Shown: piece after piece, positions 5,437 through 63,433 of the stretch | Numbering within the stretch: the stretch's first letter is position 1 | Layout: every line of letters starts with the position of its first letter | Assembly (NCBI GenBank): GCA_965222225.1 | Contig: CBDCTK010000002.1 | Span: forward strand, 4,512,001 to 4,576,000 | DNA from: Candidatus Poribacteria bacterium | GTDB lineage: Bacteria; Poribacteria; WGA-4E; JAJDTR01 | DNA: 64,000 nt | Direction of reading: 5' to 3' | Made by a program: the position numbers and the translations under genes | The notes under the pieces: model-generated | Told to the model about the DNA's origin: nothing | The model's input: only the letters and a program-made list of their open reading frames with translations | Databases searched by the model: none

Positions 5437-5603
5437 GGGATTCTCTATGCGATTTCTATCGGGCTCATTATTCACTCGCTTGATTCTGCAGGGCATGTTG
5501 TACGAAAAAGGCTGGTGGGCAGTGCCCACCCTACAGGACTAATCGCTCAGTTAATTGTTCGCTTGAAAAATCTCTATCGCGCTCGCCATTCGGTTGCTTG
5601 ATC
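5437..5603. repeat. Cluster of ~37-nt hairpin elements around a REP
   Basis: Units at 5449-5485 and 5567-5603 plus partial halves. Confidence 0.8.
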
Positions 5604-5700
5604 ATTCTGCATTCCCGTTGACGTTCTTTAATTCGAGTGGTATGATTGGCGCCAGTGCGGGTGCACGCCATCGAATCATAATACAGGAGTTTATGCCATA

Positions 5701-6360
5701 TTGGACACTGTGCAGGCAACAGGAGTAATTCTTGCAGGCGGAGGCAGTCGGCGAATGGGACAGAACAAGGCGTTGATGTGCTTGGGGGATGAAACACTCG
5801 TTGCCCGTACCTTAAAGCGTTTACAATCCGTCACGGACGAAGCCATCCTCATTTCAAATGCGCCAAATCTGTACGCCGAATTGGGTGTGCGGGTGTACAA
5901 GGACCTTATTCCCAATGCTGGCGCGCTCGGAGGCGTCTACACAGGGCTTAGTTACGCGGGAAACAATGCTGTTCTCTGTGTTGCATGTGATATGCCACTC
6001 CTACAGCCCAAGTTAATGACCTATCTCGTCTCGGTTTTGGGAGAACATGAGGCTGTTGTGCCGTATACACGGGAGATGAAGGAGTCCAATCCGAAGTTAC
6101 AAACATTATGTGCCGTGTATTCACGGCGTTGCGCCCAAGTCATCCGCCAAATGCTTGATGAAGGAGAACTACGCCTTCATGCGCTCTGTGATCGGGTCTC
6201 AGTCCGCATGGTTCATCCAGACGCATGGCGAGAATTTGACCCGAAGGGGCTTTCATTCGAGAACGTAAACACACATGAGGACTTTGAAAGGGTGAGAGAG
6301 GCGTTAGCAGCTGAGATGATGGAGGAGGTTGATGATGTTAACGGTCGAAGAAGCGCGTAA
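5701..6360 (+). CDS. mobA: Molybdenum cofactor guanylyltransferase
   Basis: ILAGGGSRRMGQNKA, GALGG, ACDMP, NVNT motifs. Confidence 0.9.
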   Translation: MDTVQATGVILAGGGSRRMGQNKALMCLGDETLVARTLKRLQSVTDEAILISNAPNLYAELGVRVYKDLIPNAGALGGVYTGLSYAGNNAVLCVACDMPLLQPKLMTYLVSVLGEHEAVVPYTREMKESNPKLQTLCAVYSRRCAQVIRQMLDEGELRLHALCDRVSVRMVHPDAWREFDPKGLSFENVNTHEDFERVREALAAEMMEEVDDVNGRRSA

Positions 6361-7549
6361 ACGAATGCTGGACACTATCAGCGTTTTACCCCCGGAAAAG
6401 CGAGGCATTTTGGACTGCCTAGGCCATGTGCTCGCGGATGATATTTATGCCGTGGAGAACATCCCGCCGTTTGATAACTCGGCGATGGATGGTTTCGCTG
6501 TTATTGCCGAGGATGTTCAAGGCGCTTCCGAGGAGGCGTCGGTAAAGCTATCGGTCATTGAGACAATCGCCGCCGGATACGCGCCGAAGAAACGACTTGG
6601 TAGGGGGCAAGCCGCACGAATTATGACAGGTGCGATGATGCCGGCAGGAGCAGATGCGGTCGTCATGCAGGAGGTGACGCAGTTTGATGGAGCGAACGTG
6701 AAAATTTCCGAGACGGTGGAAAAGGCGGAAAACGTTCGATTCACAGGCGAAAGCGTGAAGAGTGGTGATTGCGTCATGTCTAGCGGAAAGCTTCTCCGTC
6801 CACAGGAGTGCTCAATGTTGGCATCACTGAATTGCTCGGAAGTGCTAGTGCACAGGCGTCCACGGGTAGCGGTGGTTTCTACGGGCGATGAACTAACGCC
6901 GCTCGGCAATGCATTGGAACCCGGAAAGATTCGCGACAGCAACCGCTACGGAATCTACGCGCAACTTCAAGAGGCAGGGAGTATCCCAATCGACATGGGC
7001 ATTGCTCGCGATGATGAAGCAGAAACCGAGCGCATATTCCGCGATGCACTGAGTCGCTCCGATGCTCTCATTACCAGCGGGGGGGTGTCCGTCGGTGAGC
7101 ACGACGTTGTCAAGACGGTTTTTTCCAAGCTCGGCGAGATTAATTTCTGGCGGGTGGCGATGAAACCCGGGAAGCCGCAAGCATACGGCATCGCCGATGG
7201 CAAGCCAATCTTCGGCTTACCGGGAAATCCTGTCTCTTCGCTTGTTGTGTTTGAACTCTTTGTTCGCCCAGCGCTCCTCAAGATGGCGGGGCACTCAAAC
7301 CCATTTCGCCCAACTTTTAGAGCCGTGTTGGACGAAGATATCGTTAATAGAGATAAACGAACCAATTTCATGCGATCAATCATTTCACAACGCGAAGGGA
7401 AGTATTACGCAAAAACGACCGGGCCGCAGGGGTCGGCTATTCTCTATTCACTTGTTTTGGCAAACGGTTTTATCGTTATTCCTGCGGGCGTAAACCTGAA
7501 GGCAGGAGACGAGGTGGAAGCGCAGTTTTTGGGTGATGGTGCCGGATGA
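6329..7549 (+). CDS. moeA: Molybdopterin molybdotransferase
   Basis: PPFDNSAMDGFA, IMTGA, STGDEL, SGGVSVG, KPGKP, GLPGNPVS motifs. Confidence 0.95.
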   Translation: MMMLTVEEARKRMLDTISVLPPEKRGILDCLGHVLADDIYAVENIPPFDNSAMDGFAVIAEDVQGASEEASVKLSVIETIAAGYAPKKRLGRGQAARIMTGAMMPAGADAVVMQEVTQFDGANVKISETVEKAENVRFTGESVKSGDCVMSSGKLLRPQECSMLASLNCSEVLVHRRPRVAVVSTGDELTPLGNALEPGKIRDSNRYGIYAQLQEAGSIPIDMGIARDDEAETERIFRDALSRSDALITSGGVSVGEHDVVKTVFSKLGEINFWRVAMKPGKPQAYGIADGKPIFGLPGNPVSSLVVFELFVRPALLKMAGHSNPFRPTFRAVLDEDIVNRDKRTNFMRSIISQREGKYYAKTTGPQGSAILYSLVLANGFIVIPAGVNLKAGDEVEAQFLGDGAG

Positions 7550-7660
7550 TACTCAACCCGTTTTCTTTGATTCATGCGTTACAGTTGTGGAAATATGGGA
7601 AAACGGGCAAGCGTCTAACAGTGTGTGAGCAAACCGAGATAGAATTGCAAGGTAAAAACC

Positions 7661-7993
7661 GTGATGAACCCCTCAGAAGGCAAAATGTGTCAAGAGATTG
7701 TTAGATATGTTCGAGATGTGGCGAGTCCGAGGAAAATCGTACTGTTTGGATCCCGTGCGCGCGGGGATGGCGATGAGGATTCGGACTATGATTTGCTCGT
7801 CGTGAAAGACAAGGTCAAATCACATCAAGACGAATCTCATCAGATCCGTGTGGCGCTTATGGCGCTCCCAATATTTGTGGATGTGCTTTTGAGGAGCTCC
7901 GAGGAAGACAAACAGAAACAACAACTCCAGATCGGGCTTCAAAAGTCATTGATGGAAGAGGGGGTTGTCTTATATGAACACGGCATCTCATGA
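7661..7993 (+). CDS. Minimal nucleotidyltransferase (MNT) antitoxin-like
   Basis: LFGSRARGD...SDYDLLVV motif; paired with HEPN gene. Confidence 0.85.
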   Translation: MMNPSEGKMCQEIVRYVRDVASPRKIVLFGSRARGDGDEDSDYDLLVVKDKVKSHQDESHQIRVALMALPIFVDVLLRSSEEDKQKQQLQIGLQKSLMEEGVVLYEHGIS

Positions 7994-8375
7994 ATTGGCT
8001 CGAACCTTATTGAGAAAAGCGGAAATTGATTTATTGAATGCCACCGTTCTACGAAATAGCAGTCAAAGGAATCGGGAGGGAGTTGGGCTCCATGTGCAGC
8101 AAGCTGTAGAAAAATCACTCAAGGCAATTCTGGCTTTTCATCAGATCCACTATCCGAAAACGCACGTAATTTCCGGATTAGTGCGCTTGGCAAGCGACAA
8201 TGATATTGAGCTTCCGGATACATTCCGTGAATCAGATCGCTATACGATTTATGCGATGGGTTTCAGGTATGATGAACTTGGCCCTCACGAAGAATTTGAC
8301 TTTGATGAGGCAGTGACACATGCCACGGAATGCGTAACCTTCGCGAAATCGATTGTAGAGAATGTGCCTTCGTGA
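7965..8375 (+). CDS. HEPN domain protein
   Basis: HVQQAVEKSLKA, PKTH, RY motifs; overlaps MNT gene. Confidence 0.85.
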   Translation: MSYMNTASHELARTLLRKAEIDLLNATVLRNSSQRNREGVGLHVQQAVEKSLKAILAFHQIHYPKTHVISGLVRLASDNDIELPDTFRESDRYTIYAMGFRYDELGPHEEFDFDEAVTHATECVTFAKSIVENVPS

Positions 8376-8505
8376 TTATTGGAGAGAGGCAGCCGAGGGG
8401 ACAGAGTTTGTTAGATCAATCAAAAGACACAAGGATACTTTTGATCGTTCCTTATAGTGGAGTAACATTGAATTTCTAGTTGGCGTGATTACTCCAAGAG
8501 ACCGC

Positions 8506-8544
8506 AAAAAAATGGGCAGAATACGACATTTGCGTATCCTGCCC
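8506..8544 (-). terminator. Intrinsic terminator after iscA-like gene
   Basis: GGGCAGAATACG/CGTATCCTGCCC stem preceded by an A-run on + (U-tract on -). Confidence 0.6.
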
Positions 8545-8565
8545 GACGTCCGCAATGAATCCCGA

Positions 8566-8895
8566 TTATACGCTGAAGGATTCTCCGCAACCGCATTCTG
8601 TTTTGGCGTTCGGGTTAGTAATCTTGAAGCCAGTGTCCATCAAACCGTCCTTGTAGTCCAAGGTCGAACCAGCTAGGTAAAGGGTGCTTCGCGGGTCAAC
8701 GAACACCTTGAGTCCGTGAAACTCGAAGACCTTGTCGTTACCTTTGGATTCGCCAAACTCAAGGTCGTACTGGAAACCGGAACAACCCCCGCCAACGACC
8801 TTCATCCGCAGACCAAACCCTTCCTCCGCGGAATGGCCCCCTCCTGAGATTAAACCAAGTGCCTTCTGCGCCGCGTTTTCAGTGACAGTTATCAT
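8566..8895 (-). CDS. iscA: IscA/ErpA/HesB Fe-S assembly protein
   Basis: GGGCSGFQY and NPNA..CGCGESF motifs. Confidence 0.9.
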   Translation of the reverse strand: MITVTENAAQKALGLISGGGHSAEEGFGLRMKVVGGGCSGFQYDLEFGESKGNDKVFEFHGLKVFVDPRSTLYLAGSTLDYKDGLMDTGFKITNPNAKTECGCGESFSV

Positions 8896-9283
8896 AAGCC
8901 TTCCCCTTCGTTCGTTTGTTTACCCTTGACATATAGTCGTTAATTGCAGATTTAAGAACCTTTTGTGCATCAATTGCGTAGCGTTGCTTATCTGGGGGCA
9001 AGCCGCCCAATACATCGTCGATTTGCTGATTTGTGATTTTCAATGCGTCGTGGATTGTGATGCCTGTGACGAGTTCCGTTACGACAGAACTCGCTGCGAT
9101 TGCGGTTGGACACCCAAAAGCCTTAAACCTTGCGCTGGCGATCCGGCCACGGTGAATCCTAATCCAAAGCTTTATCATCTCGCCGCTTGCGGGTGTTCCC
9201 ATAGTTCCCACACCGTCGGCGTCTTTTATCACCCCGACGTTTCGCGGATTTTTATAATGGTCGATGACTTGTGGGCTATACAT
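8879..9283 (-). CDS. IscU/NifU-N-like scaffold retaining only one Cys
   Basis: YSPQVIDHYKNPRNVG, FKAFGC..AIAASS, LGGLPPDK motifs. Confidence 0.8.
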   Translation of the reverse strand: MYSPQVIDHYKNPRNVGVIKDADGVGTMGTPASGEMIKLWIRIHRGRIASARFKAFGCPTAIAASSVVTELVTGITIHDALKITNQQIDDVLGGLPPDKQRYAIDAQKVLKSAINDYMSRVNKRTKGKAYDNCH

Positions 9284-9556
9284 CTGCCTTAACTTCCGTC
9301 GGTTAAGCGAACAACCATCCCTAATTATATGTTACCCAGTGCTCTATGTCAAATCAGAAGTTTCTTGTAGGGTGGGCACTGCCCACCATTTCCACTCGCG
9401 TCGTCGGTGTGTAGGGACATCCGTTGTGGACGCTCACGCTTGCATCGCACCTCGCGTGGTTTCTTGCTTCAGTAAACACAATCCTGCGTAGTCGCCCTAT
9501 CTTTATAGGGGCAAATCGCCGTGCTTGTCTCTACCATTAGCTACCAACCACTTTTT

Positions 9557-11044
9557 TTACACCCTCGAATCCTGGGTCTGAAGAAGGTCCAACTGACCTT
9601 CCGTTGGCTCTGCTCAGCAAAACCAAGGTTCCGTAAGACGGGGCGCCCTCTCTCGATCGTCGGGGAGTGCGTACCGCTGCGGAGGCGGGCCTCCCTGCAA
9701 ACTTGCCGCAAGTTCCCAGACACAATAGAATGTCTCGCCCGGATCCGCGCCAGCTTGGGAATCCCTCTCCACCAACACGCTAACAGCTTTGTGCAGCTCA
9801 TCCATTCGTGGATCGGGATGTGACCAGCGGTAGCTAAATGAACTCTGATCCAACGAACGGAGGTGGGGCTTCATTGCGTCTCGATTTAGTAAATATGACC
9901 CCGGCGGAATTAACAACCGAACGGCGTATTGTACCGGATCGACATGGTCAATCAGAGCGTGGCTTGACACAAATTCAAACACCTCAAGGTAATCACGCAG
10001 CGATGTCCACGGTGTGAACGCGACCCAAGTAGGGCGAAGGGCGATGTTTTCCGTGTGTACAATTTCGATTGCCTCCTCAATATCGCGTCGCGTGTGGTTT
10101 TTCTCCAAAATCTGAAGAACGCGATCGCTTAGCGATTCCACCGCAGAAACCGTGAACAAGCAACCCAATTGGCTGAACTCAGGGAACACGCCACGATGTT
10201 TGATGATATGTTCAACCTTCGTCGTAAAATCAAAAGTTAGGGATGGGAATTCAGCGTGCATTGCTCGGACGAGACGCAGTGAATGGGTCGGGCCATTCAA
10301 GAAATCCGGATCGCCGAATGTAATATGCGTTGCCCCTGCTTGAACTTGCCGACGAATATCTTCCAGTACAATCTCCTGCGGAACGACAAAGAATCGCCCA
10401 TCATAAACCGGGGGAATGGGACAGTGCGTGCAGAGGTGTTTGCATCCCCGGCTTCCTTCGACATATCCCACCAGCCGGTTCTCGCCGCGATGCGCTAGGC
10501 GCGCGTACGAATCTAGTGCTGGCAGTGAACTACGCGATGGTGGCGAGAAGGACAACCGTTTGAGAAATGGTCGGGCTGCGACGCAATTGCCAATCACCCC
10601 GGCGGGTAGATTTGCCGCATTTGCCGGCAAGGTGAACCTGTCCTTGCCGACCATCTCAATGAGGGCGAGGAGCGGTGATTCATACTCGCCAGCAATGCAA
10701 AAGTCCACGCCGTTCTTTAGCAGGTAATCTGCATTGAGACCCGCATAGAGACCGTAGAGGCATATCAGCGCTTCCGGGTTGATTTCGCGGATGCGCTTAA
10801 CGACATAAACACCCAAACGCAAGGCGGTGTGCATTGGAACGGCGATTCCGACAAAGCGGGCACGGGCGACCTTATCTACGTCTAATGGTTCGACGGAAAC
10901 GTCGATTGCGGCCGGTAAGAAGCCTGCGCCATCCAAGAAACCAAGGGGCATAGCGACCGCCATCGGTTGATGTCCCAGTTCATAACAGGAAATCAACAGT
11001 ACCGCACCAGATGAACGCATGTTTTTAGCCCGTGTGTGGTTCAT
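9557..11044 (-). CDS. B12-binding-domain radical SAM selenoprotein with CUAEP tail
   Basis: CKHLCTHC motif; PWFC-TGA-AEPTEGQLDLLQTQDSRV-TAA (UGA 9614-9616); hairpin after UGA; GAGGAGG RBS before ATG 11044. Confidence 0.85.
9583..9601 (-). promoter_or_regulatory. Putative bacterial SECIS hairpin
   Basis: GAAGGTC-AGTTG-GACCTTC stem-loop starting 12 nt after the UGA. Confidence 0.65.
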
Positions 11045-11155
11045 TGATATTGACCTCCTCTCTCTATTTTGGTGTTTAGTCGATTCTTGTTGCGGGTCTC
11101 GCGACGATTCGGCAAAGTTGGGGTAATCCCGTTCTGTAGACACACCTTCCATTTC

Positions 11156-12232: not shown

Positions 12233-12433
12233 CCACTGATATGATGTTTTATGGTCGTATTATACAACCTTTTAAGTGTTGATTTCAAACACATTAGCGC
12301 TTGGGTGCAGGGTAGTTGCGTCTGATTATGGGGATGTGGAAAGGTAGCGGGGCGGAAGAATGGTGGGCAGTGCCCACCCTACAACTTTTATGCCGAATAA
12401 TAGTTGGGCTTGTGCCGGGAGTCGGGTTTCACT

Positions 12434-12541
12434 AGGATTTCTATCGCCTTGGGATCTCTATGGGAACTCTATCGCACTCACTATCCGTTCGCTTGATCGC
12501 TCCTACAGGTGTTGGGTTTCACTGTGTTCAACCCAACCTAC
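12434..12541. repeat. Stacked 37-nt elements in REP context
   Basis: Two left halves plus one full unit (12462-12498), followed by GCTCCTAC and the REP GTTGGGTTTCACTGTGTTCAACCCAACCTAC. Confidence 0.8.
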
Positions 12542-12758
12542 GGGCTACAATCAGATGCGAATGGCATGTAAGGGTATTGAATGCGGTTGACATTAGTGCT
12601 TGAAGTTATGGCATAATTATATACAGAAGTGATTTATTATAGGTGCCACGTTTCGCCTTGCGGGAAGGAGGGTGGAAACGCAGACTCGAAGATTGCTTGA
12701 CAATTGTTCTCTACAAGCTTGGGCCATCCGGAGTGCCGTTCCACCGTTCAAAGGTCAT

Positions 12759-16361: not shown

Positions 16362-16822
16362 GTCAATAGCATGGCAAGATATATTGGTTCATCACGGCTG
16401 GGATTCCACGTGATTCGCCGTTCATCTTTTACCCAAGTTGTAGCCTATTGGAGACATTGCAAACCGGGAGGATGTGAGCCAAATCGAGTCAATCACCGCC
16501 CGCAGTGGACTGCCAAATCCACTGCACCTATGGGAGTATGGCTTGGATATGTCTATCCAAGCCGAGCTGAATTTATAAATGGAGTGAAACACAACACACG
16601 AAAATGAAAATCCCAGTATTTACGACTAGATAACAACAAAGGTTCTTTGAGAACTTCTGTTTATCATCGGATGGTTGACCATTGGCTGTGCGCACGGATT
16701 GACATTCGCATCAGTCAGATCTTGGGGAGAGCGGGTGAGTGGTTTGGAAGAGTAGTTGTCATGAACAGGACAGTTACAGAAACCGAGTTTTGAAGAAAAC
16801 GCGGTTTCGCCGCACTTGCTTA

Positions 16823-17051
16823 GAGCCTGCTTGAAAAGTACAGTTTGTAGGGTGCGATCAAAGGCATGAATAATGACTGCGATAGAGATCCCCTGCGCAC
16901 CAGCCTCTAAAAGCCCCAGCGTGGGATCAAGGAAGCGAATAGCGACTGCGATAGAGATCCTACAGGTATGTAGCAGCCAACAATGAAAACATGAAATAAC
17001 TTTCTACAAATGACCAAGATTGGCTTTACCTCCGATTATTCAAACAGGCTC
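16823..17051 (-). mobile_element. MITE with GAGCCTGYTTGAA TIRs and TTA flanks, carrying a REP and two 37-nt elements
   Basis: tta|GAGCCTGCTTGAA...TTCAAACAGGCTC|tta; homologous to 58381-58618 and 63233-63433 in the opposite orientation. Confidence 0.85.
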
Positions 17052-17061
17052 TTAGAATGGG

Positions 17062-20000
17062 TTACAATTCTGCCACCATTTCCATCTCGATCCGATGTTC
17101 AGGCGCTTCCTGCTTTGTTGAGAGCAGCCGATATTTGAATCGCAGTAACAAATCTGTCACTTTCCGCACCTTGTATTCCGCGTTCGCTCGAATTTCGTGG
17201 CTTAGTCCCTCGTGGAAATGATATCGCGTGAATGGAATCCCACCAGTGCTATCCCCGAAACCGAGTCGATAATTGAAATCGATTCGGCCCTTCCGTATTA
17301 GGGAGTAAATCAGCCGGTTTTCGATTGATAATGTCCGTGTATGTGCTTCCGGTTCATCCGCCAATTTCTCAAGATCCGAGGTCGTTTCATAGCCGCCAGT
17401 AAGACTAAGCCGAAGAGCGCGGTTAAATTCGTATCGGAAGTCGATTTCACGCCTTCGCTCAAACTGCACCAAATCGGATATTCGATTGGATGTCTCCGCT
17501 TCATTCGCAAGTTGGCTAAACTGCTCTTGTTCGCGGCGCTGCTCCCATCGTCCAACGAATGATATTCGGCGTGTGGGGTTCAGCGTCAGATTGATATCCC
17601 AATCGCGGTTACTTCGCCATCGTTCTCTGTTATTGACACGCCTGTTCAGAGTTTGACTCCGGTTGTAATTCAGGTTAAGGTTCAGTGTGGTTGACGGCGA
17701 GAATTTGAGTTGATAGCGTTGCCTTTCCTGTCCAAAAAGAGTGCGATCGTTACGTAGATCGCGGAGCAGGTATAGCGATGCGGAGTCCGCTTCTTCCTGT
17801 TCTTCCCGGAGATCGAAGCGGATTTCGCCGCTGATGGCTTCCGCCAACCACTCCAACGCAGTTGTATGTTCCGGTGATTCCTCTCCCAATCTTTTACTTC
17901 CATCGCGAGGGGGGAGTTTCGAGTCGGTCGGCAGTATCCCAATTTTTGAGGTCGAAAATCGGCCAGCTCGTCTTCGCCGGGAAAAAATTTGTCGCGGACG
18001 AAAGCGTAATCTCAGTTTGGCATCAATTGCCGAAACGGGTTTGTCGTCAACATTCTGAATAATCTTTATGTAGTTCCCTTCCTCGGAATCTTCCCTATAG
18101 TGCAGGTCGTCAATTTTGACATAAAAACCTTCGCCCGGCTCAATTTCTCTTCCCGTGAACGGATTGATGTTGGAATATATCTCTCGTCGTTCCGTGGCTA
18201 ACTTCTTATCGAGTTCATAGGTAATCTCACCGTACAACGCGCGGTTAAAAGGGGTGAGTCGCACACTGATGTCGGCTAGCTGTGTTGTTACGTCGTTATT
18301 CAGTTTGTGCCGCGCCTCAAACACTCGGCGAGAGATGTTGGATGTCAGGTTTGCCCATTTGCGGGGTTGTGAAAAAAAGCCAACTGTCCATGTTCGCGCA
18401 GTCGTTTGAAGTTTCCAGTCCGAGAAAGCTAATGTTTCCCCGTCAACGGTGAGAAGGTCCTCTTTTCCGAATGATTTTTCAATGGAGTACAACGAATTAG
18501 GCGATGCCCACTTAAAGTTGACAACATCCATGCGACCTGTCGAGATATTCCGCCTTCGATTGAGGTTGGCACCGTCTGTGTAATCAAGATCCAAAGATTC
18601 CAACTGTTCGGTAGCCGCGCTCAGGTTTAATGCCCGAAGCCTATGAACGAGATTCCACTGTTGATTTTCTTTGCGAAACTGGTCAGTTCCCCTGATTTTG
18701 GATGCACTTCTACGCACATTCCATTTTAGTCGAGGGATTTTCAGGGGACTAAAATCGACAGCCCAGTTCAAGTTATCACGGATTGTTATATCGTCCCCCG
18801 GCGTGCGTGGGACAGATTCGCTGTCATTCACGCCGTCTCCCTCTGATTTTGCGCTTGCGGGTGCAGTTGCGCGGAAACGCTCCTCGGTTCGCCCTAGTCC
18901 GGAGTTAAACCCCAACCACGTGAACGGCTTGAATTGGAGGTCGAAGTCCAGCGATCGTTCGTCAGAGGATTGCCGCGGCGCTCTTCCCTCAAGCAGGTAG
19001 AGGTCATCGAATCTCTCCTGCTTGTATTGTTCTTCGTACTGAAAACGGGAGCGATTGGTACTTGATGCGCCAACCGGCACAAAGTCGGCATCAAGAGATC
19101 GAACATCAAGGTTCAACCGGATTTTCTCGTAGGACGAAAGTGCAAGGAGTTTCCACGCTCGACTGATTACCTTCGAATCCAAATCAGAAAAGGTGTTTTT
19201 GTCGAGCGCGCTGAAAGCGACTTCTCCTGTAAGGGAGGTTTGATCGCTTAGATTGAGAGCTCCGTCCAATCCCCATACGCTGTGTTTCTCCGGAGGAATT
19301 AGCGGTTTGCCATCTCCATCAGGATCCAACTCATTTCGGCGGAAATCTATCAAGTCTTGATCGCTGATAACAATGAATGCATTTTCGATGTTGTCCAAGT
19401 CCGACTCAACGGCGTATGCGGCACCAAGAGTAACACGATCTCCGGGCAGATTAAGGGACCCACTCGCACCGTAAAGATTTCGTTGATAGGCTCGATCTTC
19501 GGGGATGAATTCGAAATCAACGCGTATAACATCGTTGCTGGTGATCAGATGCTTATTTGTGAACTCGATTGTCGGGTCACCGTACTCGCGGATAACGTAA
19601 TCATTATTCTTTCCGCGCCGCATTCGCTCACCGTTGAGCCAGACGATATCGCTTCCGGCTTTGACCACGACAAATTCACCGTCGGCGTCGATTCGATACT
19701 CGCTACGCCCCTCTTCACCTCGAATCACTTTGCTTGTGGATTGCCCTTTTGGAATGCTACTCGGTATGAGGTGAAACTTTCCCCACTTGAAATCGCCTTC
19801 AACCTGCACACCTTCCAAAGCCCGCGGGAAAAAGATGAACTCCGAGTTTCCGAGAGAGCCCTCGTAATCGCCCAAGGTCGCGGTGACATTTGGGCTTGTA
19901 ATACGGATGAGTTTTTGGTCAATATCCTGAATGTCCTCGGTTGTACCGCTTGCTTGAATCGGCAGGTCTTGGTCCGACAGCGAGGCAATCACACTAACGT

Positions 20001-21506: not shown

Positions 21507-21824
21507 GAGTCTGTTTGAATAAAAGATGACAAAGCCATTCTTGGACATTCGAGTTGTTATTACCTGTGGGTTCTCTATCGCGCTCCGTGTTCAGTTACTC
21601 AATCCTGCTTTGTAGCACCGAGCTGTGTGCGCGATCCCGGAACTATATTGCGCTAGGAGGTCGCAATCGGGACATCGTTCCTACAGTAGGTCGTAGTAGC
21701 GCAATTCATTAAGCGTCCGGCTCATCGTTCAATCGTTGTACGTTGCTTGCCATGTTGTTTAGTGTAGAAACGGGCATTAAACTACTCCACTACGAATCTT
21801 AGGTATTCAACTGCGTAGGTACTA
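21507..21824. repeat. Mosaic of degenerate MITE left end, 37-nt element, REPs and a second repeat family
   Basis: GAGTCTGTTTGAATAA...CAAAGCCATT; 21764-21801 matches 36452-36490; ends ACTGCGTAGGTACTA. Confidence 0.65.
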
Positions 21825-28741: not shown

Positions 28742-29791
28742 TTGAAAATAAGCTACTGGCATTGTCTGGCACTAATCTCAATTGTCGTATTGATAATGAG
28801 TTCCACGGCGGTCCTTGCAGATGGTGGAAAAATTAGCGGCCTTTACTTCGGCGATTATTATTACATCGCCGCGCACCACAACGAGGAACGGAAATCGCGC
28901 AACGGATTCTGGACGCGCCGCGTATACCTGACGTACGATCAGAAGTTGAATGAGACGTTCTCGTCGCGCCTGCGTTTCGAAATGAATAGTCCAGACGGTT
29001 TGAAGGCGGACGCCGCCGGCAAGAATATTCCGTATGTGAAGGATGCGTATTTGAGAGTGTCACCGAAGGGCTCGTCGCACAGTATCTATCTGGGACGGTC
29101 TACTGCACCAACCTATGCAGTGTTGGTCAAACTCTGGGGTTATCGAGCAGTTGAGAAGTCCATGCCTAACTTGCAGAAGTATGGCAGTACGCGGGACTTG
29201 GGGATTGCAGTGAAGGGCAAAGTGCCAGGAGTGGACATACTGAGTTATCACGCGATGGTTGGCAACGGCGCAAGCACTGGCACGGAGACCAACAAAGGCA
29301 AAAAGGGGTACCTGTCAACAACGCTTAGGCCCTCCGGAGGCGTTATTGTTCAGGGGTATGTGGACTATGAGGCAAGGGAACTCGACATGAATCGCATGAC
29401 CTTTATGGGAATCGTGGGATACCAAAAGGAAAAATATAGGGTTGGTGCGCTGCTCGCCCACCAGATTCGAGGTCGGGCGGAAGGGAAGGATGATGAAAGG
29501 CTTCAGGGACTGTCCGTCTTTGGAGCTGCCGCTGTAAAACCCGACAAGATTTGGGTGTTTGGGCGCGTTGACAAGATGTTGAGCGTAAACTCCGCGGGGC
29601 CAAAATTCACGTATACGCCAATGAGCGGTTCCGCAAAGTCGAATACGCTCATTGCAGGACTCGATTACCGCCCGGCGAAGAACGTACACATCATACCGAA
29701 TGTGTTCATGGTCATCTACGATTCGCCCGAGGAGGGTGAGAAGCCGGACGCCGATCTGATGACGCGCGTGACACTCTACTATAAGTTCTAG
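28742..29791 (+). CDS. Outer-membrane porin-like protein
   Basis: Signal peptide, RRVYLTY, YVKDAY, beta-strand alternation, C-terminal YYKF. Confidence 0.7.
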   Translation: MKISYWHCLALISIVVLIMSSTAVLADGGKISGLYFGDYYYIAAHHNEERKSRNGFWTRRVYLTYDQKLNETFSSRLRFEMNSPDGLKADAAGKNIPYVKDAYLRVSPKGSSHSIYLGRSTAPTYAVLVKLWGYRAVEKSMPNLQKYGSTRDLGIAVKGKVPGVDILSYHAMVGNGASTGTETNKGKKGYLSTTLRPSGGVIVQGYVDYEARELDMNRMTFMGIVGYQKEKYRVGALLAHQIRGRAEGKDDERLQGLSVFGAAAVKPDKIWVFGRVDKMLSVNSAGPKFTYTPMSGSAKSNTLIAGLDYRPAKNVHIIPNVFMVIYDSPEEGEKPDADLMTRVTLYYKF

Positions 29792-29917
29792 TGAATGACA
29801 TTTTTGTGGGTAATACCATGTCTCTAAAATTCAGGCGCCTTGATTGCAGGAGTTAAGTAAAGGAATTTGTGCGGCGTGGAGTAAGATGCCTGTCGCCGCG
29901 CAAAGTCTGCGGGGCAA

Positions 29918-29968
29918 GGGGATCTCTATCAGGATTTACTATCGCCTTCGCTATTCGCTCAGTTGATC
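29918..29968. repeat. 37-nt elements within a GCGGGGCAAG...CCCG REP-like stem
   Basis: Left half plus full unit AGGATTTACTATCGCCTTCGCTATTCGCTCAGTTGATC. Confidence 0.8.
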
Positions 29969-30049
29969 CCCGTCTATGGAGAAAGAAATTGAATAATCAA
30001 AACATCTTATGCACTATTATTCAAACGAAATGGTATACGGAGAACTAGA

Positions 30050-32047: not shown

Positions 32048-32149
32048 AGGATCTCCATCGCACGGGATTTGCTATCGGGATTTGCTATCGCCTTCGCTAT
32101 CCGCTCAGTTGAACCCTCGTTGTTCACTCAGTTAATCGCTTCCTTGATT
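32048..32149. repeat. Triple-nested 37-nt elements
   Basis: L-L-full-R-R arrangement; full unit 32077-32114. Confidence 0.8.
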
Positions 32150-36300: not shown

Positions 36301-36490
36301 TAGAACTTACGCAGTAACAGGAGGTCGCGACGGTAGGCAGGGATCAAGCAAGATCAAGGGAGTGAATAATGACCGCGATAGAGATCTTCTTGCCCTGCCA
36401 CGTATAGACGAGACGTCGCGATCTGGAGATCGCTCCTACAGGGATTGAAGCGTAGAAACGGGAATTAAACTACCCTACCACGAACCTTTA
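36301..36490. repeat. Repeat mosaic with REP split by a 37-nt element (36352-36389)
   Basis: TAGAACTTACGCAGT end; GTAGGCAGG|unit|TTGCCCTGCCAC; segment shared with 21764-21801. Confidence 0.7.
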
Positions 36491-36730
36491 GAGCCTGATT
36501 GAATAATCGGTGGCAAAGCCATTTTTGGTCATTTGTGGCAAGTTTTTTCATGTTTTCATTGTTGGCTGCTACATACCTGTGGGATTACTATCGCACGGGA
36601 TTTGCTATGGAGTTCTATCGCCTTCCTTATCCTGTCAGTTGATCGGTCACTATCCGTTCCCTTGATCGTTATCCGCTCGTTTGATCGGAGTGCGCACCCT
36701 ACGAGAAATGGTGCGCGGTGCCCACCCTAC
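36491..36730 (+). mobile_element. TTA-MITE copy lacking right TIR, containing triple-nested 37-nt elements
   Basis: tta|GAGCCTGATTGAATAATCGG...; nested block 36581-36686. Confidence 0.75.
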
Positions 36731-48245: not shown

Positions 48246-48247
48246 GC

Positions 48248-56140: not shown

Positions 56141-56470
56141 AGGATGTGTCCGGTCGTCTAGTGGTTGTCGTGTCCCCGAGCTACATTTGAAGCGGTAATG
56201 AGGAATACTGACCCAAGCAGGTTTGGCAACAATTAAAATTTGGCAGCTTTCGCTGCCTACCTTGGAAACAATAATAACGTGGGCGTTAGATTGAACAAGG
56301 CCACTAGAGATTATCCGATAGAGTCCCGAAAAGGTCAAGAAGAAATTGCTTACGTTTTTGATAAATTCTTTTTAACCCCGCACGGATCAAAACGGTATCA
56401 TACCATTTGTAGTATTAGATGAGGGTTTCCTTTTACGGGTAATGTCTGTAGTTTAAAAGGTGCACGTACG

Positions 56471-56570
56471 AATCAGTTTGCCGGCTTTTAGCCCAAGAAG
56501 TTGCAAGGACCCAATGCGATTCGACTTTTTTTGGTTAGGTCTAGGTGAGCTTGGACGTATATTCAGTGAC
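56471..56570 (+). pseudogene. Remnant of a third LamG paralog (central segment)
   Basis: AATCAGTTTGCCGGCTTTTAGCCCAAGAAG...AATGCGATTCG matches ~53289-53342 and ~54274-54327; in-frame TAG. Confidence 0.65.
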
Positions 56571-56682
56571 GGGGGAGGCACGATACTCAGAGGGTGAAAT
56601 AACGTGGAGGCGCGAGATTCGGTATCGGTGTAAAATTCGATCCTGCGAGCTCAAAAGATTGACAGAGACCGCTGCTGCAGCT

Positions 56683-58035: not shown

Positions 58036-58290
58036 GTTATGACTCCTTCAATTTACGCCACCCATTCTTGGCGTAAAATTCGCCAGTGGTGGCGCGGGGA
58101 TTTGTGTGCGTCCGTTGGATGGATCGATTAGCGACGGATTCCTGCAATTGCACCAAACTTGCAGCCTTCGCCGCCTGACGGCTAAGGACGCCGTCAGGCT
58201 GTAGTCCAAACCGTCTGTGGGGAGTAATACCATTTCTCTATATTTGCTGTGCATTAATAGCGTCAATCAAGCCTCTCCGAGGCGGGGCAA

Positions 58291-58352
58291 GAAGATCTCT
58301 ATCGCGGTCACTACAGGATCTTCTATCGCCTTCGCTATTCGCTCAGTTGATC
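58291..58352. repeat. 37-nt elements in REP-like stem (same context as 29918)
   Basis: GCGGGGCAA|left half + full unit|CCCGGCTA. Confidence 0.8.
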
Positions 58353-58380
58353 CCCGGCTATTCACCACCTTTGCCCTTTA

Positions 58381-58618
58381 GAGCCTGATTGAATAATCGG
58401 TAGCAAAGCCATTTTTGGTCATTTGAAGACACGATTTTTCATGTTGTTATTGTTGCCTGCTACGTACCTGTGGGATCCCTACGAGATTTCTATCGCGGTG
58501 GGATCTTCTATCGCACTCGCTATCTGCTCGCTTGATCCTATTCGGTCACTTGATCACTCGTTATCCACTCGCTTGATCGCAGTGCGCACCCTACAAACTG
58601 TACTTTTCAAACAGGCTC
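58381..58618 (+). mobile_element. Complete TTA-MITE with triple-nested 37-nt elements (58472-58578)
   Basis: tta|GAGCCTGATTGAA...TTCAAACAGGCTC|ttg. Confidence 0.85.
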
Positions 58619-58622
58619 TTGA

Positions 58623-60746
58623 TTAAATCCGTTTAATGGCACAACCGCTCCATCCCCAGCGTTTGTTGAGCCTTCTTCCGCGCGAATATATTACCTGAGT
58701 CAGACGTTCATCGGTGATCGTGACATTGTAGCGCCTTTCCACCGTTTCATGTCCCGTCGGAAGTCTCAATTTCTTGATTTTCTTCTCCCCGTTGGCAACG
58801 AGATTTATCTCCTGCGGCTCAGAGCCGCCAGTTGAGAAATAGCAGGTCACTTCATATTCCCCGTTGGGAAGAGCAACTCTGAAAACGCCATCCTCTTCAC
58901 CCCACACACTGTCACGATAGGGTTCCGGGAGGTTGGCTTTGCTGATGAACTCTTCGCGTTCCGACCTGGTTAACCACCCATATCTCCCATCGGTGTATAC
59001 AGTATCGTCATATATGGCAATGTGATTTGGTGCCGTCTGTCCATTGTGGGATTGCATGTCAAATTTTATCGTGGTTCTGCCGCCCCACAAATTTTCGTCG
59101 GGGCTTGCCGTTTTGCGGCGATAGAGTCTGTTATAGTTGTTGGAATGAATCAGTTCAAAGTCATCTTCCAACTCCTCTGTTTCATCATATTCTGTCCGCC
59201 ACAATATCATATAGTCTGCAGTGAAGGGTGTTTTCCAGCGCCTCCCTGCCAAACTCTCTGCGGAAAAGTCTCTTTCTCTGAAGCGGACGGGGAAATGATC
59301 AGTCTTCGCCTCATAGTTCTTGAGATATGCTATCCCATTATTCACAGCCAAAAAGCACTCTGTGTGCCCGAACGGTGCCACGTATTTGGGTTTCCAGCCC
59401 AGTGAGTCCGATGGGCCATTCCACTCCTCAGGGCGACTTGTGAGGATCGTATGCTTCTCAAGCATACCAGCGGATGAAGTAGCGTTTTCTATATCCTTAT
59501 TCAGAAGATAGTACGTCTGAACATTATAACCAAGATGCCATAATGATAGGGTGATGATGATCCCGGCAGTTGCATATTTTATGTGCTTATGAAGATTGAT
59601 GCTGAAAAATGGAAGAAGCACCAGAAAGATGTAGAGATGGATTCTGTCGTTTATCCAGCCGCCGCCGTATCCGGTCCAGGGAAATTTGAAATACATTACC
59701 GTCAAGATAATCGCCATTAGCAGAAACAGATCTCTTCTGCTCACAATTCTGGTCCATAGACGTTCTTTAGTATCTTCCGATTCCGACGATTTGCAGAATC
59801 TGTAGACATGCCAGACTCTGTCTATGAGCGTTAGCAGAAAAGCTATGGCAAAAATAGCCAGTAGAACGCGTCCGATGAGAATGTGTTCATCTCGGAAGGA
59901 GACCAGCGACTTCATAGAGAAGAAATATTCCTTCAACCATTCAAGACCCCTGTGTCCGCCACCCCTACGAGGCCTTTCCAAAAAGTAAGAAAACATGATG
60001 AAATACGCTGGCAGCATGGACACCAGAAAAAGAAAAGTCGGTTTGAGTTTCGCGGCACAGCTCTTCAGCCCGCTTGCCAGTTTATTTTCATTTTCCCCTG
60101 ATATTTCCCTAAATCCCCACTTCATATGCAGCGCCTCATACAGCGATAGGAACACTGCGAAGAACGTCAGCGACATCATAAGCATCGCATAGGATTGGTA
60201 GTGGGTGAGGTAAGTCGCTATTAGCAGTACATATATTACCCCGATGTTCGTGAGGGTGAGTTCATCCCTGTGTCTCCACCAGTATCCCAAGGTGAAAAAG
60301 AAAAGGGACATACTCAGGACAAAGTTGTAAAAACCCATGTGAAGAAGGTAGTTGTAGGCGAAGATAAATCCAACCAATCCAAAAAGTGTTTTTCCCTTCT
60401 GGACTCCGTTGAGGAAATAGAACAGGGATAACGGCAGCAGCCCGATGCAGATGGAGATTAGAATCTTTTCACAGATGATCGGTGGGAAGACATACATTAG
60501 TAGCGCCAGAAACGCGTGGGAGGACCAGTTGGGGAAAAGCGTCAGGTTCAGTTCGTAAACTTCCCGTAGTCTGTAGTTTTCGTGATTGTGATACTCCTTC
60601 AATATATAGGAGTTATAAATATGACTCGCCCCATCCTGTGTGGGAAAATAACTGAAGACCCAGACCGGCAGAAGATGTATTACCAGCAACGTAATAATGA
60701 TGAGTTTTCCTACAGAAGCACCACCGGCGAAGTCATGTTTCGTCAT
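58623..60746 (-). CDS. Multi-pass membrane protein (GT-C-like) with C-terminal carbohydrate-binding-like domain
   Basis: PTQDGASH after TM1, MGFYNF, many TM helices; tail KFDM...YGW...FRVALPNGEYEV. Confidence 0.55.
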   Translation of the reverse strand: MTKHDFAGGASVGKLIIITLLVIHLLPVWVFSYFPTQDGASHIYNSYILKEYHNHENYRLREVYELNLTLFPNWSSHAFLALLMYVFPPIICEKILISICIGLLPLSLFYFLNGVQKGKTLFGLVGFIFAYNYLLHMGFYNFVLSMSLFFFTLGYWWRHRDELTLTNIGVIYVLLIATYLTHYQSYAMLMMSLTFFAVFLSLYEALHMKWGFREISGENENKLASGLKSCAAKLKPTFLFLVSMLPAYFIMFSYFLERPRRGGGHRGLEWLKEYFFSMKSLVSFRDEHILIGRVLLAIFAIAFLLTLIDRVWHVYRFCKSSESEDTKERLWTRIVSRRDLFLLMAIILTVMYFKFPWTGYGGGWINDRIHLYIFLVLLPFFSINLHKHIKYATAGIIITLSLWHLGYNVQTYYLLNKDIENATSSAGMLEKHTILTSRPEEWNGPSDSLGWKPKYVAPFGHTECFLAVNNGIAYLKNYEAKTDHFPVRFRERDFSAESLAGRRWKTPFTADYMILWRTEYDETEELEDDFELIHSNNYNRLYRRKTASPDENLWGGRTTIKFDMQSHNGQTAPNHIAIYDDTVYTDGRYGWLTRSEREEFISKANLPEPYRDSVWGEEDGVFRVALPNGEYEVTCYFSTGGSEPQEINLVANGEKKIKKLRLPTGHETVERRYNVTITDERLTQVIYSRGRRLNKRWGWSGCAIKRI

Positions 60747-61375
60747 CTTGGTATTCCTTTTGAACGCAGCAAAGACAGAAGTTTTTGCGACAGTCTGTGT
60801 TAAACTCGTGCCATCGAGGTTAGAGAAAAAATTCAGTCTATAACAGTTTCGAGACAAAAAGAGATAGCAGCAGGGGCTGCTGCATTTCTGGTGGGGTAAT
60901 TGACAGGAGATATCGAGAGTTTTTTCGCAGAAGAAAGTGTTCTTAACCAACACTCACTATCATTCCCACTGTTAGAAAATATATTTCCGGAACAATTTCT
61001 AACTCCGTTTCTCAATCAGAGTCTCAATCTGGATAGCCAAAATCATAGCATGATTGCAAATACATTGAAACTGGACACGACAGAATGTAAAATGTCCAAC
61101 AAGCGTTCGCTTGATGAACGACTCCCGGAGATCTACTTCGCCCGCGACAAAATGCGGTTTACCCAGTCCAAAAATCATATACAGAAATCTAATCCCTTTT
61201 GCCCACCTTAATCCCCTGATGTCGAAGGTAGGCGTACACCGTCGATCTAGCAATCGACAGGAGCTTGTCGAGATGCTAATCGCGCTCACGTTCTTCCGGG
61301 CGGACTTTCGAAAAGATGAACGACGCGGGTCAACAACATTCTTGGTGCAATCTTGACTTTCTCGCTTGGCGGAAA

Positions 61376-62950
61376 TCATCCACCGTAGATGCTCTCCATC
61401 TGCCAGAGGTCGAGCGACACAAGCTCTGCGTCTCTGCCCTGCGCGCTAAAAGAGACGCCGGTGCTGTCCGGTCTGCCGGGGTAGACCCGCATGGCAACGC
61501 ATTGGCGACCGTTGACGAACACCTCGATTACGCTGCGGTCGATGAATACGTGCAGCTTGAGTGTCTCCTCGGGTCCCAATGCCACCGGGGCAGTCTCCGG
61601 CGCGCGGCACAGGGCATCCGGCAGGATCGATGAGCGTGAGGAGTCGATGCTTATAAGGCTGTCGCGAGAATCCGGTTGCCGCACAGGGTGCTTGAAGCCC
61701 CGTTCGCGGTAGAAAACGATACGGGTGTGCTCCTGGCGGTCCGGCGATCGCAGCACGTTGAGTTCCACCATCGGTGCTCCACAGGTGTCAATCTCCAGCT
61801 CGAGTTCGATGGCATTGCCTTCGATGCCGTCAAGCACCGTTTCGCAATTGGCAGGGATTGGTTGACGACCAACGCTCTTGCGAGTGCCCCGGAGCGAGGC
61901 GATATCGCCGGCGGGATCGATACCGAGTTCGTTATCGCCGATCAGTGTCAACCGCCGCGGCAGGCTCATGAGTTGACCCCACCCCTTTTTCGGCAGACCG
62001 GGATTCATGTTCCAAATACAGATGACGCCGCCTTTGCCGTCGGGCGTGGCGGACGGTGCATGCAGGCCTGACGGTTGTGCGGCGCCGAAGTTGAACTTGC
62101 CGTGGGCATTTGGATAAAACTTTGCACCTTCTGCGTCGTAGTCGCCGAGCAGGTACTGCGGACCGCTCATGTGGCTGAAGAAGAGCAGGATGTGCCGCTG
62201 GACGGAACCGCTACCGATCGGCCAGAAGTAGGGGCAGGCACCGTCGTCGCCATCAACTAAGCGGCTCTGGTCGTCGACAAATGGGTGCAGGTATTCCCAG
62301 TGCTCAAGGTCGTTGGAGCGTAGCACCGAGTCCATCGGATTCCAGGCGTCGCGTCCGTTGCATAGGGCGTAGTAGGTGTCGCCCTCCCGCCAAATGCAGG
62401 GATCGTGTACGCGGTATGGTAAAGCCGATCCGTCCGGCGCCAGCAGTGGCACGACAGGCCCTCCCGTCAGCTTTTTCCAGTTGAGCAACAGCGGATCGCT
62501 CGAAGTAGCTACCATCAAGCCCTGCTCGACGCCGTAGTACATGGCGATGACCCGATCTTCTTCGACCAGCGTGGTGCCGGAGAAGCAATGGCGCTCCGGA
62601 CATGGATGAATGGCGTACGGAAGGTCGCGCCAGTGAATCAGATCCGCACTCACCGCGTGTCCCCAGTGTACACGTTTGTCGCCGTCCGGCGGATTGCCCT
62701 GATAGAAGAGGTGCCAGTTTCCCTGCCAGTAGCAGAGGCCGTTGGAGTCGTTGTGATTCGCTTCGGGACTCACGAAGTGGTAGGTTGGTCGGTGAGGATC
62801 ACTGCTCAGAGCTGCCCGCGACTCGTGCATACGCGCCAGCAGCGGGTTCGCCGCCAGCTCCTTCTCCTGCGTTTCGAGCGTGTCGCCGAAGTTGTATTTC
62901 GGTGTGTCCGTAGTCGGAAAGTATTTCGGAGGCAGGTTGTTTATAGTCAT
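61376..62950 (-). CDS. Glycoside hydrolase family 32
   Basis: RPTYHF, NDSNG, HLFYQ, WGHAVSADL.HW, FSG, HDP, ACP, IDRSVIEVFVN motifs. Confidence 0.88.
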   Translation of the reverse strand: MTINNLPPKYFPTTDTPKYNFGDTLETQEKELAANPLLARMHESRAALSSDPHRPTYHFVSPEANHNDSNGLCYWQGNWHLFYQGNPPDGDKRVHWGHAVSADLIHWRDLPYAIHPCPERHCFSGTTLVEEDRVIAMYYGVEQGLMVATSSDPLLLNWKKLTGGPVVPLLAPDGSALPYRVHDPCIWREGDTYYALCNGRDAWNPMDSVLRSNDLEHWEYLHPFVDDQSRLVDGDDGACPYFWPIGSGSVQRHILLFFSHMSGPQYLLGDYDAEGAKFYPNAHGKFNFGAAQPSGLHAPSATPDGKGGVICIWNMNPGLPKKGWGQLMSLPRRLTLIGDNELGIDPAGDIASLRGTRKSVGRQPIPANCETVLDGIEGNAIELELEIDTCGAPMVELNVLRSPDRQEHTRIVFYRERGFKHPVRQPDSRDSLISIDSSRSSILPDALCRAPETAPVALGPEETLKLHVFIDRSVIEVFVNGRQCVAMRVYPGRPDSTGVSFSAQGRDAELVSLDLWQMESIYGG

Positions 62951-63232
62951 ACTGTTTTCACCATTCCTTAAACCATCATATACGGGTCCGCGGCGCCGCG
63001 CAAACCGTCGGAGCCGTTAGCCAGAGGCAGATATATCTCAACGAGTTGGTTCTTTGTTTCAGCGATGATTTCTTGATTGTCTCAGTTTTGGCAATAACGA
63101 AAATTCGGCAGTTTTTGCTGCTTGCCATGGAAATTACGAAGGCTATTTTACCCGTTTTTCGCGTCCCGTTCAATACCAATCTCCCGGTTGAAGGGATTTG
63201 CGGAGTTCAGGTCGTACGCTGCCCTGCGTTTA

Positions 63233-63433
63233 GAGCCTGTTTGAATAAGCGGGAGCAAAGCCATTTTTGATCATTTGTAGGAAGTTTTTTCATGTTTTTA
63301 TTGTTGCCAGCTACGTACTGTGGGATCCCTATCGCACTCGTTATCCACTCGCTTGAGGGGATCTCTATCGCGCTCGTAATCCACTCGCTTGATCGCAGTG
63401 CACACCCTACAAATGTACTTTTCAAACAGGCTC
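63233..63433 (+). mobile_element. Complete TTA-MITE with two tandem 37-nt elements (63322-63394)
   Basis: tta|GAGCCTGTTTGAA...TTCAAACAGGCTC|tta; right TTA is the stop codon of the adjacent - strand gene. Confidence 0.88.

Follow-up and report, generated by a model that had tools for sequence, protein, structure and literature searches.

Copies of a 37-nucleotide (nt) element, here called the 37-mer, are scattered over a 64,000-nt stretch of DNA from a Candidatus Poribacteria bacterium (GenBank assembly GCA_965222225.1, contig CBDCTK010000002.1, positions 4,512,001 to 4,576,000 of the forward strand; hereafter "the window", numbered from its first letter). As the bases that differ between these copies appear to vary together, the locus raises the question of what kind of element the 37-mer is, in which form and on which strand it acts, and how its copies spread. 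Candidatus Poribacteria are sponge symbionts, and the genome that contains the window comprises 5.70 Mb in 2 contigs with 50% GC. A cyanobacterial origin was considered and rejected, as this genome has no more than 120 occurrences of HIP1. Our analyses favor the reading, to which we assign a probability of roughly 60%, that the 37-mer is a non-autonomous single-stranded DNA hairpin of the repetitive extragenic palindrome (REP) class, which is handled in trans by a Y1 enzyme of the HUH type and lands at the exposed hairpins of other REPs.

Copy number, design and covariation of the 37-mer

A strict scan of the window with the consensus given in an initial annotation of this DNA (up to 3 mismatches, 100 shuffled sequences as control) found 7 copies of the 37-mer, as compared to 0 in the 100 shuffles. 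A looser scan by Hamming distance (up to 8 mismatches over 29 fixed positions) found 15 copies in the window and 1163 in the genome, as compared to 1 in reversed and complemented control sequences; this genome thus holds a real family with more than 1000 hairpin-forming copies. Depending on the analysis, the copy set used below is the total of 1163, the 1152 non-overlapping copies, the 1039 copies with up to 6 mismatches (covariation) or 942 clusters. The looser scan recovered all 13 window units of the initial annotation, five of them with a start shifted by 1 base (four 1 base later and the unit at 36608 1 base earlier), and added a degenerate copy at 21568 and a headless one at 58542. An Rfam scan of the whole window at the gathering score, a check that the initial annotation had called for, gave 0 matches, so that no curated RNA family accounts for the element, and a tRNA scan of the window found nothing.

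Column statistics delimited a conserved core of 30 nt (positions 8-37), which reads CTATCGC-NNTCNN-TATYC-NNTCNN-TTGATC on the strand with the consensus GGGATCTCTATCGC..TTGATC. We refer to this as the TC strand, and strands of window copies are given for it. The head (GGGATYT in this genus) is less conserved than the core, and weak conservation also extends over about 9 bases downstream. In the core, both TC dinucleotides (GA on the opposite strand) reach 94-98% conservation, which bears out the near-invariant opposed GA/GA that had been proposed. The proposed fold of the GA strand starts with an ATC/GAT lower stem and a 2x2 bulge (AA/GC), above which two variable pairs, the tandem G.A/A.G and another two variable pairs lead to a GRATA loop.

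The proposed covariation of the variable bases was assessed in the 1039 copies with up to 6 mismatches. The Watson-Crick share of pairs 15-31, 16-30, 19-27 and 20-26 was 69, 90, 92 and 82%, respectively, and mutual information ranged from 0.40 to 1.14 bits for partner columns as compared to 0.00 to 0.18 bits for 11 non-partner column pairs. All four pairs were formed in 447 of 625 distinct 30-nt cores, against a mean of 72.8 and a maximum of 90 after shuffling of columns, and on this measure the covariation holds. As the copies comprise 255 stem haplotypes and 625 distinct cores, descent from a few founder subtypes is excluded as its cause. Fully paired haplotypes numbered 95, and the combinations allowed, as counted from the observed pair types, number about 108.

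To extend the analysis to other Poribacteria genomes, we searched these with a covariance model built from 14 window copies, which matched 102 copies in 36 loci. In these copies 94.2% of the cells were paired, as compared to 62.9% after shuffling (0 of 500 shuffles reached the observed value), in an alignment that was fitted to the model and hence favors structure; an ungapped pattern alignment, not fitted to the model, agreed with this result. When partners were slid in the other-genome alignment, only 20-60% were paired. Moreover, all four pairs showed double changes, with 141 cells changed on both sides as compared to 29.5 after shuffling.

The exceptions to pairing identify the folding strand. 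Summed over the four pairs, they comprise 469 A-C, 78 G-T and 141 other non-pairs, and because A-C exceptions far outnumber G-T, the GA strand is the strand that folds, as had been claimed together with the predominance of A-C. Likewise, 91.5% of the cells in distinct cores are paired on the GA strand as compared to 81.7% on the TC strand, an asymmetry that arises mostly in the outermost pair and in the loop-closing pair. Each variable pair also avoids one orientation, so that most copies read Y-GA-R on both arms, a context that would favor sheared tandem G.A pairs. Overall, these data demonstrate selection for a strand-specific hairpin with opposed GA/GA. General hypermutation of the variable positions was tried as a further candidate and rejected. 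In only 4 orthologous pairs, 6 of 32 variable, 3 of 88 fixed and 9 of 240 flanking positions differed, and since 4 of the 6 variable differences fall in one copy, the numbers fit a single hairpin replacement and not general hypermutation. Between the window copy at 12462 and its orthologue in the relative G019, 4 of the 8 variable positions differ and 0 of the 29 fixed ones.

Orientation, distribution and turnover

By a crude longest-ORF (open reading frame) call, which leaves 16% of the genome non-coding, 810 of the 1152 copies lie outside ORFs. The ORFs that contain a copy are mostly short (median 103 amino acids), and short ORFs overlapping 37-mers are probably spurious. The orientation of the copies follows replication: the TC strand lies on the G-rich strand, with 280 copies on the + and 145 on the - strand at positive GC skew and 117 on the + and 365 on the - strand at negative skew (odds ratio 6.0, P = 3 × 10-37). 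The odds ratio was 4.6 when one copy was kept per 5 kb and 4.35 for clusters lacking GTAG within 80 nt. Within a skew class, orientation was the same whichever way the flanking genes point. At negative skew, the + and - copies numbered 37 and 125 between two + genes and 33 and 104 between two - genes; at positive skew, these numbers were 107 and 59 and 55 and 26, respectively. Because orientation ignores gene direction and tracks GC skew, an RNA-level function in cis is unlikely, and the data favor single-stranded DNA over RNA as the acting form. The initial annotation had left the choice between a single-stranded DNA and an RNA structure; its hairpin selection stands, while its RNA alternative is disfavored.

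One could still suppose that the GA-strand hairpin is selected as RNA, as a protein-binding or transcript-stabilizing element. Tandem sheared G.A pairs are classic protein-binding features of RNA, the GA strand tolerates wobbles of the G.U type, and for one copy the RNA fold is significant (-14.4 kcal/mol, z = -2.3); this single good RNA fold also shows the ATC/GAT extension of the hairpin across the AA/GC 2x2 loop. However, two of the three copies folded as RNA did no better than shuffles, and with an orientation that is independent of flanking genes and follows replication, transcription would yield the non-folding strand for about half of the copies. Copies also sit inside other DNA repeats and turn over fast, and the motif has no Rfam match. 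We therefore regard a structured RNA motif as very unlikely.

The replication polarity is shared with other REPs of this genome. In three scanned families of REPs with a GTAG tag, the GTAG strand lies on the skew-negative strand (odds ratios of 0.07, 0.24 and 0.11), and the GA strand of the 37-mer has the same polarity; the classical REPs of the genome likewise keep their GTAG strand off the lagging-strand template. Such polarity could possibly result from preferential loss of, or counter-selection against, fork-exposed active strands, or from an insertion rule unlike that of IS608. The literature that we examined on REPs, REP-associated tyrosine transposases (RAYTs) and IS200/IS605 elements yielded no account of REP orientation relative to replication. 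Along the whole chromosome (G000:C2), GC skew changes sign dozens of times, not twice, with 37-mers following the local sign, and this reflects either a heavily rearranged chromosome or assembly inversions.

A survey of 121 sampled genomes of the Poribacteria phylum, using the 30-nt core with up to 1 mismatch, showed that the expansion of the 37-mer is lineage-restricted. The core was found 545-1216 times per genome in all 8 genomes of the window's genus and 184-202 times per genome in all 4 genomes of a second genus, which belongs to another family; among the remaining genomes, one had 3 matches, two had 1 match each and the other 104 had none. The second genus has a different head (RARAA before CTATCGC) and the same 30-nt core. 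Comparison of related species showed that the 37-mer turns over fast: this genome was compared over 400 kb with a relative of 85-90% identity, and among 31 element-bearing syntenic gaps between genes, 29 are filled in one genome only, and in one orthologous spacer compared across seven genomes the numbers, positions, orientations and stems of the 37-mers all vary. Given these one-sided gaps and the two genera rich in copies, the element behaves as the non-autonomous mobile unit that was initially proposed.

These distributions also bear on the alternative that the 37-mer is a DNA signal selected by the host and oriented by replication, i.e., a polar chromosomal motif or a protein landing site for chromosome handling. 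The strong replication-linked polarity (odds ratio 6), which tracks the local skew through many sign changes, would be expected of such a signal. This polarity reaches only about 70-75%, though, most sampled genomes of the same order have 0 or 1 match, and orthologous sites differ between species; moreover, unrelated GTAG REPs share the polarity, which suggests a common property of REPs. A host-selected signal thus appears highly improbable.

Two further observations concern individual insertions. At window positions 12233-12671, a block of 37-mers is bracketed by a 10-base direct repeat, GGGTTTCACT, both in this genome and in G019, and GGGTTTCACT occurs once in relatives without the block (six relatives compared); the repeat may have arisen by target duplication, or it may represent one half of another REP. 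In public reads (short Logan contigs), neither excision nor transcription was shown. One joint skips exactly 16856-16892, but such joints were rejected as evidence of excision, as their sides of 21-25 nt and repeat-level depth indicate that they derive from other repeat copies.

Nesting in other REPs and the Y1 transposase genes

In 299 of 942 clusters, CTAC was found downstream of the TC strand at a distance of up to 25 nt, and in 54 of 942 GTAG was found upstream, as compared to a background of 5-7%. About one third of clusters thus have, 5' of the hairpin and collinear with the GA strand, a GTAG tag that belongs to a host REP. Comparisons of filled and empty host copies showed that five other REP families contain nested 37-mers, which in every case are collinear with the GTAG strand of the host. 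The nesting sites are the loop of GTAGGGTGCGCACTGCGCACC, the interval between head and hairpin of the CTATAnACnTGTCG-CCCCGCTGGGGC REP, the loop of GTAGGCGGGGCATCTTGCCCCGC, a position within GTAGGAGCGA...TCGC and a position adjoining GTAGGTTGGGTT; no single target motif was found upstream of the head.

The units also nest inside or behind each other, leaving truncated heads upstream and hairpin remnants downstream, and spacings of 23-25 nt occur among neighboring copies. Of the 672 hairpins that are exact and fully paired, CTATCGC precedes 520 and TTGATC directly precedes about 50 (control 0). Neighboring copies are mostly in direct orientation (795 of 1151 pairs, i.e., 340 ++ and 455 --, with 178 +- and 178 -+), and this applies to short-range pairs as well.

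A passenger role for the 37-mer could account for some of these patterns. The element would then spread only with larger composites and host REPs, together with slippage, duplication and gene conversion, and its covariation would come from hairpin-templated repair or from counter-selection of unpaired palindromes. Indeed, the most frequent two haplotypes, with 66 and 42 copies, are fixed inserts of one composite of about 250 bp that resembles a transposable element of the miniature inverted-repeat type (MITE), about 200 of the 1152 copies lie near the end motif of this composite, and all alignable indels between two species are composites of 80-210 bp, with no bare 37-mers among them. On the other hand, 941 copies with an unchanged strand bias are found more than 400 nt away from that end motif, and the same composite carries 37-mers in varying number (none, one or several) and at varying internal positions. 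Array neighbors differ in their stems, which is not expected from duplication, and templated repair would also remove the conserved TC/TC (GA/GA) mismatches. We thus consider it unlikely that the 37-mer is a passenger only.

If an enzyme acts on the 37-mer instead, the Y1 transposases of the genome are the candidates. The genome has 5 matches to PF01797 (Y1_Tnp), the best of which is an intact IS200/IS605-type gene encoding 157 amino acids. The protein scores 65.8 bits with NF033573 (IS200/IS605; cut-off 55) and 30.6 bits with NF047646 (REP_Tyr_transpos; cut-off 80), and its closest solved structures, weakly matched (E = 5 × 10-6), are ISDra2-type transposases. The gene has 37-mers on both sides in inverted orientation, as do its orthologues in the same genus, and the copy that adjoins it here is a CTATAnACnTGTCG-CCCCGCTGGGGC REP with a 37-mer inserted after CCTGT; orthologues in other genera, which are 72-85% identical, are flanked by CTATAnACnTGTCG-CCCCGCTGGGGC REPs. 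In the relative with the most 37-mers (G010, 1216 matches), two intact copies of this gene lie 3 kb apart (G010:C1:1635189-1638703), although with eight related genomes this coincidence is anecdotal.

Two decayed RAYT genes are located at L104:1372-1914 and L106:1441-1662 (G000:C2, about 3.089 Mb and 3.560 Mb); one has a single in-frame TAG, the other is reduced to its C-terminal 73 residues, and 37-mers lie near both. The paralogue with the TAG stop goes with the GTAGGAGCGA...TCGCGAC REP. The truncated paralogue, which 37-mers flank in inverted orientation, has orthologues (68-83% identical) in the window's genus only and goes with GTAGGGACGCAGATCTGCGTCCCCTAC, while a third RAYT type, represented in this genome by no more than a weak partial match, goes with GTAGGTTGGGTTGAAC...GTGAAACCC; the paralogue with the TAG stop and the truncated one were assigned as RAYT-like by eye. 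At least five further REP families occur genome-wide (window examples at 5517-5540, 12360-12385 and 36687-36730), each of which goes with a Y1 gene type of its own in the phylum, and the stem of the GTAGGTTGGGTTGAAC..GTGAAACCC REP also holds a tandem G.A/A.G mismatch.

In the reading that we favor, a Y1 HUH enzyme, i.e., one of the RAYT or IS200-like transposases of the genome, would handle the 37-mer in trans. This enzyme would read the irregular features that do not vary, namely bulge, G.A pairs, loop and flanks, whereas the four other stem positions would need pairing only, and copy lineages would therefore drift through nearly all allowed complementary combinations. New copies would enter other REP hairpins at their loops or feet, or sites beside other 37-mers, in a strand-specific way that follows the GTAG strand of the host, and some would later be co-amplified inside larger MITE-like composites. 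We infer the movement by a Y1 enzyme, and likewise which enzyme it would be and where it would cleave.

Several results weigh against this reading. In a search with four Y1 proteins against 121 genomes each, and with PF01797 in four genomes of the second genus, no Y1 gene was found with the 37-mer as its own flanking repeat (four proteins, 121 genomes); each type has a different REP, and the 37-mers that flank Y1 genes are insertions into the REPs of those genes. Two second-genus genomes with 184 and 202 copies showed no homologue with the 157-amino acid query. About two thirds of the clusters have no GTAG tag, and insertion junctions are mostly unclean, with 1-3 host bases replaced; one case (ATG^CCCC) is clean. 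As lagging-strand template, the TC strand is expected to be single-stranded and not the GA strand that folds, and IS608-type elements have the polarity opposite to that of the 37-mer folding strand. The lower stem and bulge columns are invariant and hence give no covariation signal either way. Folding of three copies with DNA parameters, on both strands, was no better than for shuffles (z from +0.3 to +1.1) and folding with RNA parameters supports only the one copy described above, with energy models that treat tandem G.A poorly.

A more specific proposal is that two micro-modules multiply independently, one a head of 11 nt (RGGATYTCTAT) and the other a hairpin unit of 23 nt (C-hairpin-TTGAT), and that both end in a target-like T-R/Y-AT motif that would recreate the landing site. 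As hyper-parasites of REPs, they would insert strand-specifically at REP feet and loops and would borrow the GTAG tag of the host REP together with its RAYT. We regard this proposal as doubtful, if worth entertaining.

Known systems and the copies in the window

The 37-mer shares features with several known systems. REPs are imperfect palindromes of 20-40 nt that are present in high copy number mainly between genes, and the 37-mer, with a unit of 30-37 nt, agrees with this description. According to Corneloup et al. (2021; PMC8266576), E. coli REPs have a conserved AA-GC mismatch bulge that is required for TnpA-REP activity, and GTAG and single-stranded irregularities drive REP recognition. The 37-mer resembles the E. 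coli-type group 2 REPtron described there in its short imperfect single-stranded DNA hairpin, its AA/GC bulge, the 5' GTAG tag, the many intergenic copies and the Y1 HUH genes among the repeats. Unlike E. coli REPs, it has an upper stem that is free to vary and a second invariant irregularity (the tandem G.A), and its tag, present in only about one third of clusters, comes from the host REP. Its mostly direct arrays also differ from the alternating arrays of E. coli bacterial interspersed mosaic elements (BIMEs). Moreover, a REPtron has a single-copy RAYT gene flanked by inverted copies of its own REP, whereas no gene has the 37-mer as its own flank and the best-flanked gene scores as IS200/IS605 and not as REP_Tyr_transpos.

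Di Nocera et al. (2013; PMC3733652) describe for most REP families a division into sub-families that differ by alternative, complementary residues of the stem; one GTAG/CGTC family has a stem with unpaired GA residues, and some REPs lie inside other palindromes. The 37-mer is similar to these GTAG/CGTC super-families in all three respects and in occurring as singletons, dimers and clusters. It differs in having 255 stem haplotypes in one genome and not a few sub-families, in a stem of only four Watson-Crick pairs and in its systematic nesting in at least five REP families. Pseudomonas REPINs are likewise non-autonomous, tied to RAYTs and rich in compensatory hairpin changes, although the REPIN unit is an inverted REP doublet (Bertels and Rainey 2011; PMC3116915). 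In the 37-mer family, which consists mostly of single or direct units, the inverted doublet with a long hairpin was not found as the unit, inverted neighbors being a minority.

IS200/IS605 elements (IS608, ISDra2) share with the 37-mer their strand-specific hairpins, a coupling to replication (PMC6006769) and, as proposed for the 37-mer, handling by a Y1 HUH transposase. A possible parallel is that every 37-mer unit ends in TTGAT(C) and that ISDra2 inserts 3' of TTGAT. Unlike these elements, the 37-mer has no pair of left and right ends around a gene, its unit measures 23-37 nt and the replication polarity of its folding strand is opposite. Miniature IS200/IS605 elements would show a left and a right end with sub-terminal hairpins on the same strand; the 37-mer has one hairpin per unit, and the 37-mers that flank the Y1 gene are inverted and not direct. 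A further likeness is to the Nostoc small dispersed repeats (SDRs), which Elhai et al. in 2008 reportedly described as dispersed repeats of 21-27 nt that insert into one another and keep a hairpin; these belong to a different phylum and have a different sequence.

Overall, we read the 37-mer as REP-class because the GTAG tag of about one third of its clusters, the conserved bulge and the alternative complementary stems match the design and habits of REPs. The initial annotation recognized no described family; no Rfam family matches the sequence, and the kind of element is recognizable as that of REPs. A literature search on Poribacteria and repetitive extragenic elements found no description of Poribacteria REPs. 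While REPs as a kind are already known, the 37-mer is unusual in its two fixed internal loops, its near-saturated covarying stems, its oriented nesting in five families and its lack of a gene of its own.

The copies in the window illustrate these features. Both scans found the copy at 12462..12498 (+, 1 mismatch), which has two truncated head modules before it and GCTCCTAC (GA strand: GTAGGAGC) after it, and the copy at 36352..36388 (-, 2 mismatches). Both also found the copy at 16856..16892 (-), which lies in the loop of a GTAG REP (GTAGGGTGC at 16847-16855, CTGCGCACC at 16893-16901) within the MITE-like composite of about 250 bp, and the copy at 16925..16961 (-), which is inserted into a CTAT..CCCCGCTGGGGC REP of this composite, between the head and the hairpin of that REP. 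The copy at 36608..36644 (+, both scans) is the first unit of a direct array that continues with a headless hairpin+TTGATC unit with a different covarying stem (36645-36667, +) and a 3' partial unit (36668-36686, +), after which half of a GTAG REP extends to about 36702. Two tandem units with near-identical stems (63322-63358 and 63358-63394, together 63322..63394, +, both scans) are followed by GCAGTGCACACCCTAC.

The remaining copies, all on the + strand, were found by the looser scan. These are the copy at 5449..5485 (4 mismatches), conserved in G019; the copy at 5567..5603 (5 mismatches), with a hairpin that is degenerate; the degenerate copy at 21568..21604 (5 mismatches), which was absent from the initial annotation; and the copies at 32078..32114 (5 mismatches, with head fragments duplicated upstream) and 58316..58352 (4 mismatches). 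The array at 58501..58578 begins with a full unit (58501-58537) and continues with a 3' remnant; its last member is a headless unit (58542) that ends at 58578, after which GCAGTGCGCACCCTAC follows. The copy at 29932..29968 lies in the loop of GCGGGGCAAG..CCCCG within a second MITE-like composite.

The composite of about 250 bp has inverted ends (TAAGAGCCTGnTTGAA) and is found at 16820-17066 as well as at about 36480-36720, 58380-58615 and 63270-63440. Its parts are an arm rich in A/T, two REPs that differ from each other and a number of 37-mers ranging from none to several, and its end motif occurs 214 times in the genome with no replication polarity of its own (P = 0.16). The second composite, of about 210 bp (window about 29790-30010), ends in TACCATTTC...GAAATGGTA and holds the GCGGGGCAAG..CCCCGC REP with the 37-mer in its loop; in the comparison with G019, it is present in one species and absent from the same site in the other.

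REPs are abundant and their spread is poorly understood, and the more than 1000 copies of the 37-mer represent a natural mutational scan of a hairpin, which shows the positions that are fixed (the two internal loops, the loop and the flanks) as compared to those that need only pairing. The oriented nesting and the shared replication polarity bear on the substrate and strand choice of Y1 enzymes in vivo. If the two micro-modules do multiply independently, they would be among the smallest mobile DNA units known, and if the GTAG or GA strand does shun the lagging-strand template, this would be a general, undescribed feature of REP biology. For genome annotation, the 37-mer explains much of the intergenic clutter of Poribacteria and advises caution against calling such hairpins small RNAs.

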